From Octopus vulgaris (Eukaryota): a stretch of DNA of 64,000 bases. Where the stretch lies: NCBI GenBank assembly GCA_951406725.2, contig OX597823.1:52576001-52640000 (forward strand). The letters run 5' to 3'. Below, piece by piece: positions 27,158 to 38,489 of this stretch. The number at the start of each line of letters is the position of its first letter. The first letter of the stretch is position 1. The notes beneath the pieces are model-generated. The model searched no databases, had not been told where the DNA came from, and was given only the letters and a program-made list of their open reading frames with translations. The translations under genes were made by a program, and so were the position numbers.

Positions 27158-29352
27158 TAGTTTTATTTTTATAGCGTGCTTTCACTTCACTACCGAGCGC
27201 AGCTCTGTGTGCCTTGGGTATGTGCTGTGATTTGTTGTGATGCTCTGATGGTTATTGTATGGAAAGTGTTCTGCGTAGGATGTGTGCAGTGCCTAGTAGT
27301 GTAATTTTCTGTATGTTATATGTGTTTGTAAGTCCTGGTGTTTTTGTTATGTATTTGTTTGAATATTTTTTTATCATGCCTAATGCACCTACTATGATAG
27401 GAATTGTTTCTGTTTTCAGGTTCCACATTCTAGTTACCTCTATTTCCAGGTCTTTGTATTTTGAGAGTTTCTCCATTTCTTTTAGAGACACGTTGTCATC
27501 TGCCGGTATTGATACATCAATTAGAAAGCATTTTTTTCCTTCATGATCTCTGACAACTATATCTGGTCTGTTGGCCTTAATTTCTCTATCTTTGTTGTGG
27601 TGCTCTTATTTTTACTGTATTGAAAGTGTTTTACGTAGGATGTGTGCGGCGCCTAGTAGTGCTATTTTCTATATGTTATATATATATACTTATAAGTCCT
27701 GGTGTTTTTGTTATGCATTTGTCTGAATTTAAAAAAAAAAAATTTTTTTATCATACCTAATGTGCCTACTATGATAGGAATTGTTTCTGCTTTTCGGCTC
27801 CACATTCAAGTTACCTCTATTTCCGGATCTTTGTATTTTGAAAGTTTTTCCGTTTCCTTTAGAGAAACATTATCATCTGTTGATATTGATACATCAATTA
27901 GAAAGCATTTCTTTTTTCTTGGTGTTCTCTGACAACTATATCAGGCCTATTGGCCTTAATTTCTCTATCTGTGTGTATTGGCATATCCCAGAGTATGGTT
28001 GTATTCTCATTTTCTGTGACCTTTTCTGGCGTGTGCCTATACCATCTTTTTCTGTTGTTATTCCATAGTATTGGCATAGCTTCCGGTGTATATATGTCCC
28101 AACTCTGTCGTGTCTGCGATTATATTCCTTCTTAGCCAGGACTGGGCAGCCAGAGACAATACGATTTATTGTTTCTTCTCCATCACCTCATATTCTGCAG
28201 TTACTTGTATTTCTTTTCATTACGTAGTTTTGGGTGATTTCTGGTGAGAAAGCTTTGATCTTGTACTGCAATTAAAATCCTTCAGATTCTACTTTGAGTC
28301 ATGAGTTCTTCAGCCATTGCTAGCATTTTGCTAGCATTTTGCTAGCATTTTGCTTTGTCTATTTCTTTTCTGTTTATCTTAACCTAATATTTGCCATGAA
28401 GGGGCTTTTCTAACCATCGTTTTATCATGATCTGTTGCTGCTCCAATTTTAGTTTGGATTTCATTTGTTTTACAGCTTTTGCAGTTTCTTCTTTTTCTTC
28501 ATAACTATTAGGTGCTATGGCATCTTTTTTGTATTTATCATCTTCCTTAAAGACTGAAAACAGTTTTTTTGTTTTGTTTCGTGGCTATTTATATTAGTTT
28601 TTTTTTTTTTGGCTTTTTGATGTAGGTATTTCTGTAGCCTTGTGGTGGTTATTTTGTAATAGTTTTCTAGCGGTATAAAGACTCTACCACCTTCGATACG
28701 TTGTATATATAGCCTTTCTATGTCAGATTTTGGGTGGTGCATCGAAAATCCTATCGTTATTTTTCAGGTTTTCCTGTCTATTTTGATTTAGAGTCCAGTT
28801 AAGATTATTGTAGCAGTAACTTATAACTAGGATGGCTAGAATATTGCTTTTTTTTCATTGAGCTCTGTTTTCTGTATTAATCTGACTTGTCTATAGTATT
28901 CATTTTTTGTCTTCTCTTTCATTTGTGTGTTGTATCGTATTGAATTATTATTATTATCATATTTTTCCTTCTTTCTTCAAATTTTCTTCCGTTTCTCGCC
29001 GAGTGTTTTCCTTACACCTAGGGCAGAGAAGGGCATTGTATGCATTCCCAGATTACACGCGCAAATTAAGATAAAATATGTATTTAAAAATTAATAAATA
29101 AATAAATTCATGGATGGATGTTATTTTCACAGCGATAGTGCTCTTCTCAGTACATGAGCCGTTCCAGTTAATACGATTTCTTGCACTTCCTGTAGGGATG
29201 GTAAGCCTGGAATCATTTTCGAATAGGTTTCAGTACCTTTTTTTTTATCATTCCTAGAGATCCTACAATCACTGGTACTTTAGTCGCCTTGAGATGCCAC
29301 ATTTTTTCAATTTCTATTAGCAGGTCTTTATATTTACTAATCTTGTCAAATT

Positions 29353-29414
<62 letters not shown>

Positions 29415-30330
29415 TATACACTCAAAAGATTACACTTGAAAAAGAAAAGAATCCTAGCATTGGGCTACAGCAAGCTGCATTAGATGCCAAGAACTCTCCT
29501 AAGTATCCTAGCTGTCCCTAATAGCACTATTTTCCAGAGCTGTACTAAACTGGGTTTTATGCTTATTTCCTCTATCCATCTGTTCAAATCTTTAGGGATA
29601 GTTCCCAATGCACTTATAACTACTGGGATACATTTCACCTGCACTTTCTATAGTCTCTGTAATTCAATAGCTAGGTCCTGGTACTTTGCTATTTTTCAGT
29701 ACTTTTCATATTAATTCTTCATCGTTTGGGATTGTAAAGTCAATTATCTGGCACCTTCTATTGTCATTATCTACAACTAACAAATCAGGCCTTCTAGCTT
29801 CTATTACTCTGTCAGTGTGAAAGTTTAAGTCCCTCAGCATCTTATATTTCTTACTTTCTAGTACTTTACTAGGTTCATGTTCATACCATTTATCAGGATG
29901 TTCAAATCCTAGCTTTCTACATAGCTCCCAGTGGATTGCTCTCCCTAGATTATCATGTCTTTTCATGTATTCTTTCTGCGCCAGCGTGCTACATTCACTT
30001 ACTATATGAGTAACACTCTCCTCTTTTGATTTGCATAATCTACATTGGGAATGTACTTGGTTTTTGTCTATTTTGGCTTTTATCCAATTAGTCCTTAATG
30101 CTTAATCTTGTGCAGCCACTAACAAACTTTCTGTCTCCCTCTTCAGCTGTCCCTTCTGCAGCCATAACCATGTCTCACTACTAATATTTGCTGAAACTGT
30201 CTTTTGGAATCTACTATGCAATGTCTTCTCCTGCCAGTCAGATAATTTCTGTTCTTTTTTCTGATTTTTAAGTTCGTTTGGTGTTTTGGTTTCTCTATGT
30301 CGTGCTGGGACTCTAGCAGCTTTTAATAAA
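25135..30330 (-). mobile_element. Stack of six R4/Dong-like (RLE) non-LTR 3' fragments mostly separated by (AAT)n
   Basis: Repeated KYxDL..EIxRxW..IPIIVGALG..IQKxALLGTAxILR, RPD nuclease motif and CCHC; pieces about 25135-25415, 25850-26970, 27154-27590, 27591-28940, 28960-29352, 29415-30330. Confidence 0.88.
25590..25849. repeat. (ATT)n microsatellite, ~260 bp
   Basis: Direct reading; periodic ATTGCTGTT interruptions. Confidence 0.98.
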
Positions 30331-30339
30331 CTTGCTTCA

Positions 30340-31195
30340 CTTTTAAATTTTTTTAAATATTAATACATTTACTAATACTAACATTAATTTAGCTAATACC
30401 ATCCAACCCTCTATAAATATTGATAACATGGTTATGGTATCTGAAGTCAATTCCAATAGAATTAAGTTTATGTCAAGTAACTCTAAGATTAAAAATTCTA
30501 TATACCAGTGTATAATCAGTACTCGTAATAAAGTACGATTTTACATTGGAAGCACATCGTTAGAGTTATCTAAAAGAATTTCTATCCATTACTCAACATT
30601 TAGGGATAGAAATAAACATAATAGTACCGGTCTCAGCAAACTGATTTGGGATTTAAAAGACCACAATGAACAATTTCACTTAGAATGGTTGATTCTCTCA
30701 ATTTCGATACCATATGACAAATGCAAGGAATGTTGTCTTCTCTGCAATTCTGAGCTATTTTTCATTATTTTTTCTAAAAAATACTCTAGTAAACACGGTT
30801 ATAGAACGAGCATACAGATGTAAGCATTAGCAAAAACATACATTTAGTGCATATAAGTAGTCTCTATCATTATATATAATTTAAACTTTAATTTCTTTTA
30901 TATTTAACATTCACTATTGGTATCCCTACTCTTTCTGTTAGCTACTTATGACGTTATATCATATAACGTTTTTTTAAACAATATTAATAGCGTTCTGGCT
31001 ATCGCTATACAAATCCATCATTTTTTGCTAAAATGTCTTATTGACGAGTTTCGCTTTTTTCACTTTCCTGAGGAGAAGATTGCATTGTTTATACCATTTA
31101 TTCTTTTGAATAGTATCAGTGGAATTTTCGAAACATGTGTCGAAAGTAAAAATATTTGATTACACCTGCGTTAAACTCCATTTATTTATTCATAT
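30340..31195 (+). mobile_element. 5'-truncated Penelope-like element (GIY-YIG plus 3' hammerhead)
   Basis: IYQC..FYIGSTS..R...H.STF..NSTGLSKLIWDLK..CLLCNSE; 3' UTR ending at a short TA run. Confidence 0.88.
31062..31147 (+). ncRNA. Type I hammerhead ribozyme in PLE 3' UTR
   Basis: Stem I actttc/gaaagt, CTGAGGA, long stem II gaagatt..aattttc, GAAAC-ATGT-GTC, cleavage after 31141. Confidence 0.85.
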
Positions 31196-31574: not shown

Positions 31575-31588
31575 GTGGTTGCTCTCAC

Positions 31589-32355
31589 AGCAACCACCAC
31601 AATTATCATCATCATCATCACCACCGCTGCCACCATCGTCTTCTATCACCAAAAATACCAACAGAAAACCAAATAAGAAACCACTGCCCTCTTCCCCCAC
31701 ATCACCACCTCAATACTACTGCAGTAACAAAAACTTAAAGAAACATAGGAAGCAGAATGCGCCCCCCACGGCACAAACAAGAAATCCCCAAATATGCCGC
31801 TATTCACTGCGCCAGAGACTCTGCACAAATAGTGACTGCATCTTCACGCATCTACCCGGCACTAGACGCACTACCGGCCAAGGCCAAAGCACGCATCCCA
31901 CAATAACATCAACACCACCAAATAGTAAATCGAAATTCAAAACACACACAACTCGGAGTCCCAAAATCTGCCGGTATTCCCAACGTGAGAGAACATGTCT
32001 ACTGAGTGACTGTCCCTTCACTCATCTTCCAGGGACCCAACGCACAAACAGAAACGGGGCCTCAAGCCAACACACAAACCTGAATAACAATAAAAATAGA
32101 AACACACCATGCTGCAGTAATGCTGGTCCAGTCTTTTCAGGAAGACACAAAAACAACAACAACAAAAGTGGAAACTACAACCCTATCCAACAGTGCAACC
32201 ACACCTCCAGCCAAAAACTGCTCCCTAAGCAGGAAAATTCTTTTTTAGCCATGTTGAACATGGCAAAAGAGATACACAAAAACATTCTAGCCATCACTCA
32301 ACACCATCCTATGCTATTACCCCAGTGCACCAATTCCCCACATTGCTGCCACTAA
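31589..32355 (+). CDS. LINE ORF1 (5'-truncated) with two CCCH zinc fingers
   Basis: ICRYSLRQRLCTNSDCIFTHLPGT and ICRYSQRERTCLLSDCPFTHLPGT (C-x7/8-C-x4-C-x3-H). Confidence 0.8.
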
Positions 32356-35336
32356 CACACACAAAAAATCCAAGCCCCCTGCAACAGTCAAAACCAGCCA
32401 CTACACTAACCTCCACATTCCTACTCAATGCACAAGGTGTCAGCCCTTCCATCAATGCACAAAAATGGAAGGTCCAATTCATTGAAGACTGGGTTGGTAA
32501 CCATTCACACCACATCCCTTTCTTCATTCTCACTGAGACCCACCTTGACAACTCCCACTTGGAAGCCGAAGTGAGAGTGAAGAATTTCACAACCATCCGC
32601 GCGGATCGTATCGGCAGGAGGAAGGGTGGAACTGCCATTTTCCTGCATGATTCATTTACGGCAGATGGAAATAGTATATTCTCCAACGGCTACTGTGAAT
32701 CAGTCACCGTGCACAACAAAGCCAATGACCTGACAGTAATTGGGCTCTATAGGTCGCCCCAAACACCCATACTGTGCTTTAAAGAATGCCTCAACAGCAT
32801 TAAGTGCTTTATTCAAGAGTGCCATTCTAGCAACATACTCATGATGGGAGACTTCAATCTACCCTGTGTTGACTGGACTACAAACTGTTTGAAACCAAGC
32901 ACTCCCGCCTCAACCGCTGACAAAGAAGCAGCAGAGTCACTTTTCGACTTTACGAATGAGTTTTTCTTGTCCCAACTTGTCCTTGCACCAACAAGACATC
33001 AGAACATTTTGGACCTAGTGTTTAGTAACCACACTAACACTATACATAACGTTACAGTGGAAAAAACCCTTCTTTCAGACCATGACATGGTTCTCTGTAA
33101 CATGAAATTCCACCAGCCGAAAGCTAATCCTAGTGACCTTCCTCCAGTCCACCCATTTGACAACATGGATCTCCATAAAGCCAACTGGGATGCAATCAGG
33201 AACGAGCTATCAAATGTTGACTGGTCCTTTACACATACACACATCTCCACCAACCATAAAACATCTTGGCAGATCTTTGTAGACACCGTCACAGACATAT
33301 GTGCAAAACACTCCCCACCAAGACCTGTGAACAAAAAGTGCAGAATCCCCCAAAACAGAAAAACCATTATCAGAAAAATAAAAAGAACAAACAAAAAAAT
33401 TAACAAACTAAAGTACTGCCAACAGCAACACACACATTCGACGGCTATCGCACTGCTTGAATCCAAAAAATATAACCTCCAACAATGCATGAAGACCCTC
33501 ATCAATAACCAAAGATCAGCTGAGGAGAAGTGGGCCATTGAAAAAATCAAACTCAACCCCAAAGTGTTCTTTTCATTTGCGAGGAAACGCAGGGTCACTG
33601 TCTCCACTGTAGGCCCTCTAATTGACGAAACTGGCACTCTCCAAGATAATGCCAAATCCATGGCCGAGATACTGCAGAAACAATACTGCTCTGTTTTCAG
33701 CAATCCTGATATGGCCGATCTGGGCTGTATCAGTGATGTCAACCCCCAACACACTATATCGGACATAACGTTTAGTGCCCTTGATGTCTTAGCGGCGATA
33801 AACGAAATAAAACACAATTCAGCAGTAGGCCCCGATAGGTTCCCTGCTTGTGTCCTGAAGGTGTGTCGACACCAACTTGCATCTCCCCTTGCTAATCTGT
33901 GGAGAAACTCACTGGATGCTGGCTATATTCCAAAAACCTTCTGTCCCAGTTTTCAAAAAGGGAAACAAGTCCCTTGCAGTGAATTACCGTCCGATCTCAC
34001 TCACCTCTCATATCATCAAGGTATTTGAGAGGGTGGTGAGATCTCGAATCTGGAAAGCAACAGACGGCTGATCTCCAACCAACATGGGTTCCGTAATGGA
34101 AGGGACTGCCTAACGCAGCTCCTGCATCACTTTGAGGACATTTTGAGAGCTTTGGGAGAGGGCTCCAACACCGATGTCATCTACCTTGATTTCAGTAAGG
34201 CCTTCGACAGGATCGATCACAAGATCCTATTGAAAAAACTATCCAACATTGGTGTCTCTGGAAAGTTACTGAAATGGATTAAGTGTTTCCTGACAGACAG
34301 ATCTCAACATGTTGTAGTTGAAGGGGTAAAATCAAGCCCAGCCAAAGTCAGTAGTGGCGTTCCGCAAGGCACTGTGCTGGGCCCACTTCTTTTCATCATT
34401 TACATTAATGACATTAATGACATCATCAAGCACAGCAACATAAAAATCTTTGCAGATGACTCCAAGCTACAGAAGGTCATAAATGAGGCGAGTGACCGGA
34501 CATGCCTTCAGTCAGATCTACTGGCTGTTATCCAATGGGCAGAAAAAAACAATATGCTGCTGAACGAGGATAAATTTGAGCTAATCCACTTTGGAAAAGA
34601 GGATGCCCTGAAACTCCCATACTCCCTTCCTTCAGGTGAAACTCTCGCGGCGTCCAACAACATCAGAGACTTGGGAGTAATTGTGGACAACAACGTAAGC
34701 TGGGCCACTCATATAAACACCAAAGTTGACATGGCCCGCAGAATGTGTTCCTGGATTCTCAGAACTTTCCAGTCGAGAGATATCCACACCATTATCCTTC
34801 TCTTCTCCACTTTTGCCCGACCCCACCTTGAATACTGTTGTCCACTGTGGTCTCCCCACACAATACAAGGTATCATAAAAGTTGAAGCACCTCAAAGGGC
34901 AATCACAAAAAAGATAGATGGCATGACAGGCCTCGACTATTGGGGTCGACTAGAAAAGCTAAAACTCTATTCTCTCCAACGTCGTCGTGAGCGCTACATC
35001 ATCTGCATGATGTGGAAAATATTCCATCAGCATTGCCCAAATGATGTTGGCATCACCTTTAAGGTACATCCAAGGCTTGGGCCCCGTGCCATCCGCCCAA
35101 AACAAAAATCGCACTCTCATCTCATAACAACAATACGGCACAATTATTTCACCTCAATTGGCCCCGCTCTCTTTAACATTACACCAAAACACATTAAAAC
35201 AGAAACTGACCCTATAGGGTTCAAGAAGTCTTTGGACAGATTCCTTCAAGAAATCCCGGATAAACCCCCTACACCCGGATATGTCTCTGTAAACAATAAC
35301 TCTCTACTTGAGTGGGCCATAGTGCCCAAATTCTGA
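32229..35336 (+). pseudogene. LINE ORF2, AP endonuclease plus reverse transcriptase, two small deletions
   Basis: LTETHL, GDFN, LDLV, SDH; YRPISLTS, QHGFR, DFSKAFD, SGVPQGTVLGP, FADD, RPHLEYC, SLQRRRERY; frameshifts at about 33940 and 34050. Confidence 0.95.
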
Positions 35337-35417
35337 CTTGAAAGACTTCACCAGGTGGTGCTATTAAGTTAGACATGGCCTGGGCCAATAATGGCCGAAA
35401 CCTATCAAAGTATCAAA

Positions 35418-35551
<134 letters not shown>

Positions 35552-37069: not shown

Positions 37070-37945
37070 ACAAAGTGCATTCTAGAAGTTTTGAGATTTG
37101 TTAATTTCAAAGAAGTACAATTTGCTCCAAAGTAGGATCCTCTGAGTTCAATGCTCCAACCACTTCAGGAAGGCCCCATAGAAGTCCTCCAACGTAAAGG
37201 TATCCAGAACCCTTGTCACAGCCTCCTTCATCTTATCAGTGTCTTCAAAACAACTGCCCCTGAGATTCTCCTTTAGCTTGGAGAACAACCAAACGTCACA
37301 GGGAGCAAGGTTTGTACTATAGAGAGGTCAAGGTACAGTTTTGATGCCATCTCTGTCAAGTATTAGGTTACCAAGGATGGAATTGTGGACTGGTGCATTG
37401 TTCTGGGACAATCAACCTGAATTGAAGAGCTCTAGCCTTTTGTGATGAAATGTCTTCCTAAACTCCCTAAAAATTTGTCTGGCCAAGGAGTCCACTGGTT
37501 ATAGATGATGCCCTTGCTGTCAAAAAAGGGGTTCATCATGGGCTTCCTAACAGATTTGCTTTGCCTGGTCTGCTTGGATCTGGAGGCAGCCAGAATGTTT
37601 CCATTAAGTATTCTGTCTCTTGGTCACTGGATCATTACAGTAGATCCAGCTTTCATCATAAGTCACCAGAGAGTCAAGTACTCTTGGATTGGAGGTAATG
37701 GGTTCAACCATTTCCTTGCTGCCACCAGTGTGTCTTTCCTTTAATTCATCACTGAGTACCTTGGGAATAACCTTTGCCCAAATTTTGCACATGTTCAGAT
37801 TGTCAGAAATAATTCTATGCACAGTTTTCACTTCAAACTGTATGCTTATTGTCTGATAGACACCCATGCTTATAGACACACAGCAATCTTCATCTAAGAA
37901 ATAATAAATTTTCTCAACCAGCTCTGATGTTCTGACTTTGCTTAT
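37070..37945 (-). mobile_element. mariner transposon remnant
   Basis: AKVIPKVLS, LVTYDESWIYCNDPVTKRQ, QNNAPVH, YSTNLAPCDVWLF; terminus after TA at about 37070; cut by a SINE. Confidence 0.85.
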
Positions 37946-38489
37946 TTCTTTATTGCCCACAAGGGGTTAAATATAGAGGGGACAGACAAAAAGACTAAGT
38001 CGATTACATCGACCCCCAGTGCATAACTGGAACTTAATTTATCGACCCCAAAAGATGAAAGGCAAAGTCGACCTCGACAGAATTTGAACTCAGAACGTAA
38101 CAGCAGACGAAATACCACTAAGCATTTTGCTTGTTTATGATTAATCTATATTTTTGTTACTTTTCATTTGTCTTGCTCACTTATGTTTCTGGTGTGCTAA
38201 ATTTTCTAGAGAACAATTCTTGGTGGTTGAGACCATAGCGGATCTTCTTCTAGCATAAGGGTTTCCTCATAATGGTTAAAAAATCCCCTCTTATATTTAT
38301 GTATGAAATACTATTTACTGAATCTCAGTTTTTTATATGCTAGACCACTGGTGTTAAAATTGATGTTATCAAATTAATATCCAATTTTTCACCCTCATTT
38401 TGATTTTAATATATATATATACACACACACATAAGTATATAGGCGTGTGTATGTCTGTGTGTACACCTACACACACATATGTATGTATA

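Follow-up and report, generated by a model that had tools for sequence, protein, structure and literature searches.

The window analysed is a 64,000 nt stretch of Octopus vulgaris contig OX597823.1 (positions 52,576,001–52,640,000, forward strand). It contains one copy of a LINE family, termed family A here (Table 1). This copy is dead, because it starts at position 31581 and carries three deletions in ORF2, located after 33931 (1 nt), 33941 (13 nt) and 34048 (10 nt). The 5' truncation removes the first ~150 codons of ORF1. The copy shows 99.0% identity to the full-length copy L034. Full-length copies are ~4.6 kb and are sited in (TA)n tracts; both ORFs are open in six of ten fetched copies, which were chosen among the best matches. 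Family A is a young APE-type LINE family: its copies are dispersed and variably truncated at the 5' end, they have a common 3' end with a simple repeat, and they are without LTRs.

ORF1 of full-length copies encodes 409 aa counted from the AUG. It consists of a Myb/SANT-like N-terminus (E 2e-5, under cut-off), a low-complexity middle, two CCCH-type fingers (Pfam zf-CCCH_2, E 0.016, under the curated cut-off) and a conserved C-terminal segment, for which a homologue was not found among 123 candidates. ORF2 of intact copies is 1,043 codons from stop to stop and has matches to Pfam PF14529, PF03372 and PF00078, all above cut-off, i.e., an APE endonuclease and a reverse transcriptase (RT). The nearest named relative of ORF2 is a protein of Argonauta hians with 53% identity, and a genome search with the Argonauta protein places family A at the top of the list. 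A PDB sequence search gives weak DNase I matches only. Family A presumably belongs to the CR1 group; this label rests on the initial annotation, on the ORF1 domains of relatives and on sequence motifs, the tree of ORF2 proteins being without named CR1 references.

Table 1. Positions of features of the family A copy in the window, and of stop junctions in distant relatives
Feature	Position	Strand	Remarks
Dead family A LINE copy	31581..35419	+	5'-truncated, APE-type, between (TA)n tracts
ORF1, 3' part	31581..32355	+	Stop TAA 32353-32355
Two CCCH-type zinc-finger motifs of ORF1	31795-31851, 31969-32025 (span 31795..32025)	+	From sequence; weak Pfam zf-CCCH_2
Last stop in -1 phase (TAA)	32226..32228	+	26 such stops upstream in ORF1, 0 from here to ORF1 stop
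ORF2, APE endonuclease (from ~32415) and reverse transcriptase	32229..35336	+	Broken in this copy
Hairpin 32248-32254/32258-32264	32239..32272	+	Extendable: U-run pairs with 32265-32272
Slippery heptamer U_UUU_UUA	32241..32247	+	ORF1 phase, Phe-Leu; predicted -1 frameshift site, also T-deletion hotspot
Candidate 3' stimulatory stem	32252..32303	+	32252-32264 with 32290-32303; spacer 4 nt
UUG and CUG, near-cognate codons next to ORF1 stop, ORF2 frame	32343..32348	+	CUG (32346) at the place of the family B AUG; start in a rival reading
Stem-loops of the 3' UTR (z -2.6); 8-nt tandem repeat at the terminus	35352..35419	+	
In-frame stop junctions of relatives	L199:3047-3052, L200:3092-3097, L216:983-988, L232:965-970, L258:2017-2022		

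ORF1 and ORF2 share 127 nt, with ORF2 in the -1 frame, and the features that the initial annotation read in this overlap are all present. ORF1 reads TCT TTT TTA GCC, which places an in-frame U_UUU_UUA at 32241–32247. The -1 frame opens directly after the TAA at 32226–32228 and runs stop-free into the endonuclease, for 599 codons in this copy. The first AUG of ORF2 is codon 205 (32841–32843); the Pfam endonuclease match starts at codon 83, and the AUG is therefore inside the domain. Within the 4.2 kb of coding sequence in an intact copy, TTTTTTA occurs once, and U_UUU_UUA is the sole canonical heptamer in slippery phase across the whole of ORF1. Because of this, the heptamer at the junction is not a chance occurrence. 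The same layout is the usual state of the family. In all 30 loci inspected, which were picked by identity, ORF2 opens at the equivalent of 32229 and has its first Met at codon 205.

Two sister families, B and C, were found via loose ends of contigs from public runs. Their DNA identities to family A are ~80% (B) and 69–75% (C), and the ORF2 protein of family B is 78% identical. The heptamer, the -1 overlap and the end of ORF1 are all retained in both families, and the BLAST alignments of A to B and of A to C start at the heptamer. The sequence pattern for family B gives 165 matches. By eye, the T6 run is present in 89 of the first 100 of 106 family B matches, and TTTTTTA in 12 of 23 decayed copies of the older family C that cover the site; A_UUU_UUA, found in the first family C copy, is a minority state. 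The heptamer is conserved beyond protein constraint, in the sister families and in the distant relatives described below. Within the overlap, the ORF1 frame looks by eye better conserved than the -1 frame, which counts against a frameshift.

An in-frame AUG before the endonuclease, which the initial annotation took to be lacking, is indeed absent from family A. It is present in family B, where an AUG precedes the ORF1 stop by 7 nt in all 20 copies (of 25 loci) that cover this place. Family A has a CUG there instead, as do 16 of the 25 matches of family C. The family B AUG is the main evidence for termination-reinitiation, in which ribosomes would resume translation at the CUG (or UUG) immediately ahead of the ORF1 stop and the heptamer would be incidental or a relic. 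Overlapping stop-start junctions are established for SART1 and for caliciviruses according to the parts of the source available (PMC2699510), and L1 ORF2 is described as tolerant of AUG loss in the available portions of two papers (PMC1965478, PMC5009743). The U and G of the family A CUG, however, are forced by a Cys codon of ORF1.

Distant relatives provide a further comparison. One metagenome scan gave 80 loci; 22 were dropped since the ORF2 start was not placeable and 15 of the remaining 58 were without an upstream ORF. In the resulting 43 relatives, ORF2 overlaps ORF1 in the -1 frame in 34 and in the +1 frame in four, and it lies in frame behind a stop in five. A canonical X_XXY_YYZ is in the slippery phase in 26 of the 34 -1 overlaps, vs two and five in the other phases, and 19 of the 34 have no Met before the endonuclease. 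L235, which has a broken ORF2 start, was later excluded from this set, leaving 33. The heptamer is then in slippery phase in 26 of 33 overlaps vs 9 of 119 control windows of the same phase and length from upstream ORF1 (Fisher 1e-15; p-values of this census overstate independence, because kinship is not modelled). It lies at a median of 22 nt after the -1 frame opening. The median stop-free stretch before the ORF1 stop is 189 nt in the -1 phase vs 24 nt in the +1 phase. Termination-reinitiation leaves unexplained both this long open -1 phase and the heptamer at its start in 26 of the 33 relatives. The AUG at or near the upstream stop that characterizes reinitiation is present in family B and, within 30 nt of the ORF1 stop, in only 2 of 33 relatives; family A has the CUG. 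As the source of ORF2 protein in family A, termination-reinitiation is therefore considered unlikely, although it may work alongside frameshifting in family B.

The heptamers of the relatives are AAAAAAC (12), GGAAAAC (6), TTTTTTA (4), CCCTTTA (3), GGGAAAC (2) and TTTAAAC (2), the list of named heptamers having been set after data inspection. They encode different dipeptides and are found on separate, long branches. In a tree of 55 ORF2 proteins (quick method, midpoint root, four short proteins omitted), terminal branches are long and the heptamer changes between neighbours. The heptamer changes along the tree while the slippery-phase rule holds. The ORF1 types also differ among 26 relatives scanned and include CCCH, PHD and GDSL esterase proteins. 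The three closest relatives with sequence context (37–41% identity) all have TTTTTTA, 4–10 nt into the -1 frame; the joint odds of this spelling of x-Phe-Leu over four lineages are ~2e-8, given the codon usage of each element. Four of the 33 overlaps (L201, L210, L226, L248) have no heptamer even with GGA allowed. Three of these, L210 (1267–1351), L226 (921–1014) and L248 (1237–1318), form one clade and have G_GGG_GAA in ORF1 phase near the overlap start, which is possibly a non-canonical slip site. Several homologous proteins available without DNA context start with a Met shortly before the endonuclease. This counts against a frameshift, but these may be starts that a gene caller placed at other codons.

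The length of the T run varies within family A. A junction census by a sequence pattern with a free-length gap gave 345 matches, and run lengths were counted in the first 100: T6 in 62, T5 in 18, T4 in 10, T3 in 7, T7 in 1 and substitutions in 2. This is taken as the unbiased count, because the 30 loci above were picked by identity. The T6 run (32241–32246) is thus shortened by 1–3 bases in 35 copies (e.g., L073, L075, L080, L081). ORF1 and ORF2 are fused in T4 copies into one frame of 1,468 codons. In T5 copies, ORF1 stops at the run and ORF2 gains an upstream AUG near 32120. Every run length is found on every SNP sub-lineage among 70 fetched copies, a set enriched for variants, which indicates that T6 is the spreading form and that the fused form has been derived repeatedly. 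A single fused ORF is not the consensus; the T4 and T7 copies number 11 in the first 100 and are spread across all sub-lineages. T4 and T5 subfamilies are ruled out by the recurrence of these states on all backgrounds and by the four pairs of copies with two or more rare alleles in common, all of which differ in run length, and a copy-specific indel or a fused master element by the family-wide junction layout together with the run-length census.

Such in-frame copies raise the question of polymerase slippage, in which RNA polymerase or the element's own RT alters the length of the U run and in-frame (T4/T7) RNAs or copies supply the fusion in trans. HIV RT makes -1 and +1 indels at U6A in vitro, as reported in the portion of the source available (PMC5737442). 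The in-frame copies, however, do not form a clade, and family B has few indels at the same site. The GGGAAAC, CCCTTTA and TTTAAAC of relatives are tRNA re-pairing motifs and not long homopolymers. Structures that stimulate RT slippage are described, in the part of the text consulted, as 5' of the run (PMC5737552), whereas the family A hairpin is 3'. The length variants may also be sequencing errors. Polymerase slippage as the source of the fusion is judged quite improbable.

The T-run deletions themselves are either RT slippage at insertion or a hairpin-linked sequencing artefact, and both predict the same pattern. Other runs of 5–7 bases in family A are almost all length-stable, the main exception being an A6 run that is shortened in 12 of 69 copies. 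No rise of deletions with copy age is seen (26 T6 vs 36 non-T6 copies, p 0.82), and no shared flanks turned up in the 44 of 70 copies whose 3' flank was usable. Deletions are present in 4 of 100 copies of family B, where the hairpin is weak, vs 35 of 100 in family A; one of eight family A copies with a broken hairpin is deleted (p 0.17 against 35%). Contigs of public runs have T6 only at the junction, although such contigs drop rare variants.

A last alternative is that ORF2 is translated from a spliced or subgenomic RNA, or by internal initiation, and that the junction has no recoding role. IRES-like initiation has been proposed for mouse L1, to judge from the accessible part of the report (PMC3592465). 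ORF2 of family A, however, offers no AUG to use before codon 205. The contigs of public runs cross the junction unbroken, in four of four runs and, as long records, in three of four runs of another set; rare forms could escape contigs. Either route for ORF2 is highly improbable.

The way the ORFs overlap, the lack of an AUG and the heptamer's conservation are direct observations, and they support the gag-pol-like ORF1-ORF2 fusion by -1 frameshifting that the initial annotation had proposed. In family A, ribosomes probably enter ORF2 by a -1 frameshift at the conserved U_UUU_UUA close to the end of ORF1, a reading drawn from sequence comparison. The copying enzyme is likely made by a ribosomal slip because there is no usable start codon and because the heptamer is kept, a site of this kind being present in the majority of distant relatives as well. 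Under this model the bulk of ribosomes would translate ORF1 to its end. A minor fraction would shift back by one base at the Phe-Leu after ORF1 codon 374, omit the last 35 residues of ORF1 and continue for 1,037 codons in the -1 frame. The predicted product is a fusion of ~1,411 aa, consisting of ORF1, a linker of ~55 aa, the endonuclease and the RT. The slip could follow a two-tRNA or a hungry-UUA route, as for the same heptamer in HIV-1 and Semliki Forest virus (SFV); UUA represents 8 of 130 Leu codons in family A. Stimulation of the slip is probably weak, from a modest stem nearby and the rarity of the UUA codon, which would suit the small amount of ORF2 protein that LINEs presumably require.

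Stimulatory structures for -1 frameshifting are usually located ~5–9 nt downstream of the heptamer. The spacer of the IBV site is 6 nt (PMC6771820). Two structures had been suggested near the family A site and both fold as written. The candidate 3' stem has a delta G of -10.7 kcal/mol, with a z of -3.4 on the tightest hand-picked window and of -1.6 to -1.9 on wider windows. It is only partly conserved and is not general among the relatives. Over 11 copies of families A, B and C, 69% of cells pair. Six of its 11 pairs are broadly kept in the sister families and five are mostly broken outside A; there is one compensatory pair change between A/C and B. The alternative hairpin, which reaches back over the U run, has -17 kcal/mol and a z of -3.1. 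Since it starts at 32248, directly after the heptamer, a ribosome positioned at the site would melt it. The consensus fold prefers a weak hairpin that buries the slippery site, and families B and C have only weak 3' structure. Taken together, 34 sites show no enrichment of structure on their 3' side (median z -0.46; Wilcoxon p 0.08 and 0.26 vs two controls). L225 and L239 have strong stems after the site, and in both ORF1 stops right after the heptamer.

Long-range pairing of the junction with the 3' end of the element was also considered and is not supported. Among 628 windows, the tail is the top-ranked partner for the 30 nt that follow the family A heptamer, but with a spacer of 0. The tail ranks 29th and 9th in two family B copies, the 3' ends of family C were not located, and in 24 relatives pairing is not enriched, with seven at p<0.2 vs six and six in the controls. 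As separate observations, a segment 10–15 nt after the heptamer pairs over 9–12 bp with the 3' UTR in L194, L205, L209 and L217 and is first-ranked in three of the four. Families A and B have near-identical 3' stem-loops (L272–L279 3' ends; 35352–35419 in the window) with different terminal tandem repeats, both in (TA)n. The family A tail stem-loop has arm sequence in common with the junction hairpin, and cross-pairing is possible.

Frameshifting to -1 is a textbook mechanism in retroviruses and LTR elements. The sites of HIV-1 (gag-pol) and of SFV (6K/TF) have the identical U_UUU_UUA, read as Phe-Leu as in family A, and the rare UUA codon could similarly favour a one-tRNA route (PMC6771820, PMC5737442, as far as the available text goes). 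Family A resembles gag-pol in having a -1 overlap between an RNA-binding ORF and an RT ORF. Unlike HIV-1, it is a non-LTR element with an APE endonuclease and no recognised protease. It also differs from both viruses in that ORF1 continues for 35 codons past the site and the 3' stem, at a distance of 4 nt, is weak and conserved in part, and in that its frameshift site is a prediction from sequence comparison.

Among LINEs, the only precedent found, in literature consulted in part, is that of Dictyostelium TRE5-A and TRE3-A, APE-type non-LTR elements said in the accessible portion of a review to need a -1 frameshift (PMC5911963). These are likewise LINEs with an ORF1 and an APE-RT ORF2. However, they are amoebal, target tRNA genes and have a zinc-finger ORF2; this comparison is by description and not by sequence. 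A frameshift inside HeT-A gag is mentioned in the part available of a 2016 recoding review, which calls L1 ORF2 translation an unknown type of initiation (PMC5009743). Family A resembles CR1-group LINEs in its APE and RT ORF2, variable ORF1 and tandem-repeat 3' end, and it has relatives with PHD or esterase ORF1s; its own ORF1 is Myb/SANT-like with CCCH fingers and so differs from the esterase type (PMC13343379, in the portions available). The available main text of that 2026 survey does not refer to frameshift, overlap, slippery, start codon or translation. A full-text literature search, with subscription journals and Repbase reports outside its scope, found no description of -1 frameshifting in CR1-group LINEs. 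SART1 UAAUG coupling and AUG-independent L1 translation, as far as their sources could be consulted, serve the same task, i.e., ORF2 from a two-ORF LINE RNA, and the family B AUG beside the stop resembles coupling of the SART1 type. These routes give free ORF2 protein from abutting or separate ORFs, whereas the -1 overlap of family A is long, free of stops and has a slippery site at its head.

Translation of LINE ORF2 is an open question even for L1. The mechanism proposed here is of a known kind; what is new is an invertebrate LINE lineage with an HIV-type heptamer and a controlled census over 33 families. If the frameshift occurs, the RT of family A would be made as an ORF1 fusion in a proportion that depends on ribosome slippage, and possibly on the supply of tRNA-Leu(UAA), and the elements would become accessible to host factors acting on frameshifting. 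Consensus annotations that start ORF2 at the internal AUG, or that merge the ORFs, would then be wrong.

We lean slightly towards a broader proposal, in which gag-pol-style recoding is the general route to RT in a large, old branch of LINEs. An ORF1-ORF2 fusion would be made mostly by -1 frameshifting on interchangeable heptamers of viral type, and in some lineages by stop-codon readthrough; the family A RT may itself also slip at the same U run in about a third of insertions. Three of the five in-frame relatives (L200, L232, L258) have no Met before the endonuclease. A C directly after a stop codon is a leaky context, and it is possible that the in-frame relatives reach the same fusion by readthrough. 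In all five in-frame junctions a C is found straight after the stop (UGA-C three times, UAG-CAA and UAA-C).

Elsewhere in the window, frames between 27936 and 30823 resemble, by eye, pieces of other retroelements. On the - strand, the frames with Cys motifs at 27936–28187 and 29706–30359 are presumably such pieces, and a + strand frame at 30347–30823 is one that we take to be GIY-YIG-like. A frame of 120 codons on the - strand (37604–37966) resembles what we assume to be a fragment of a mariner-type transposase.
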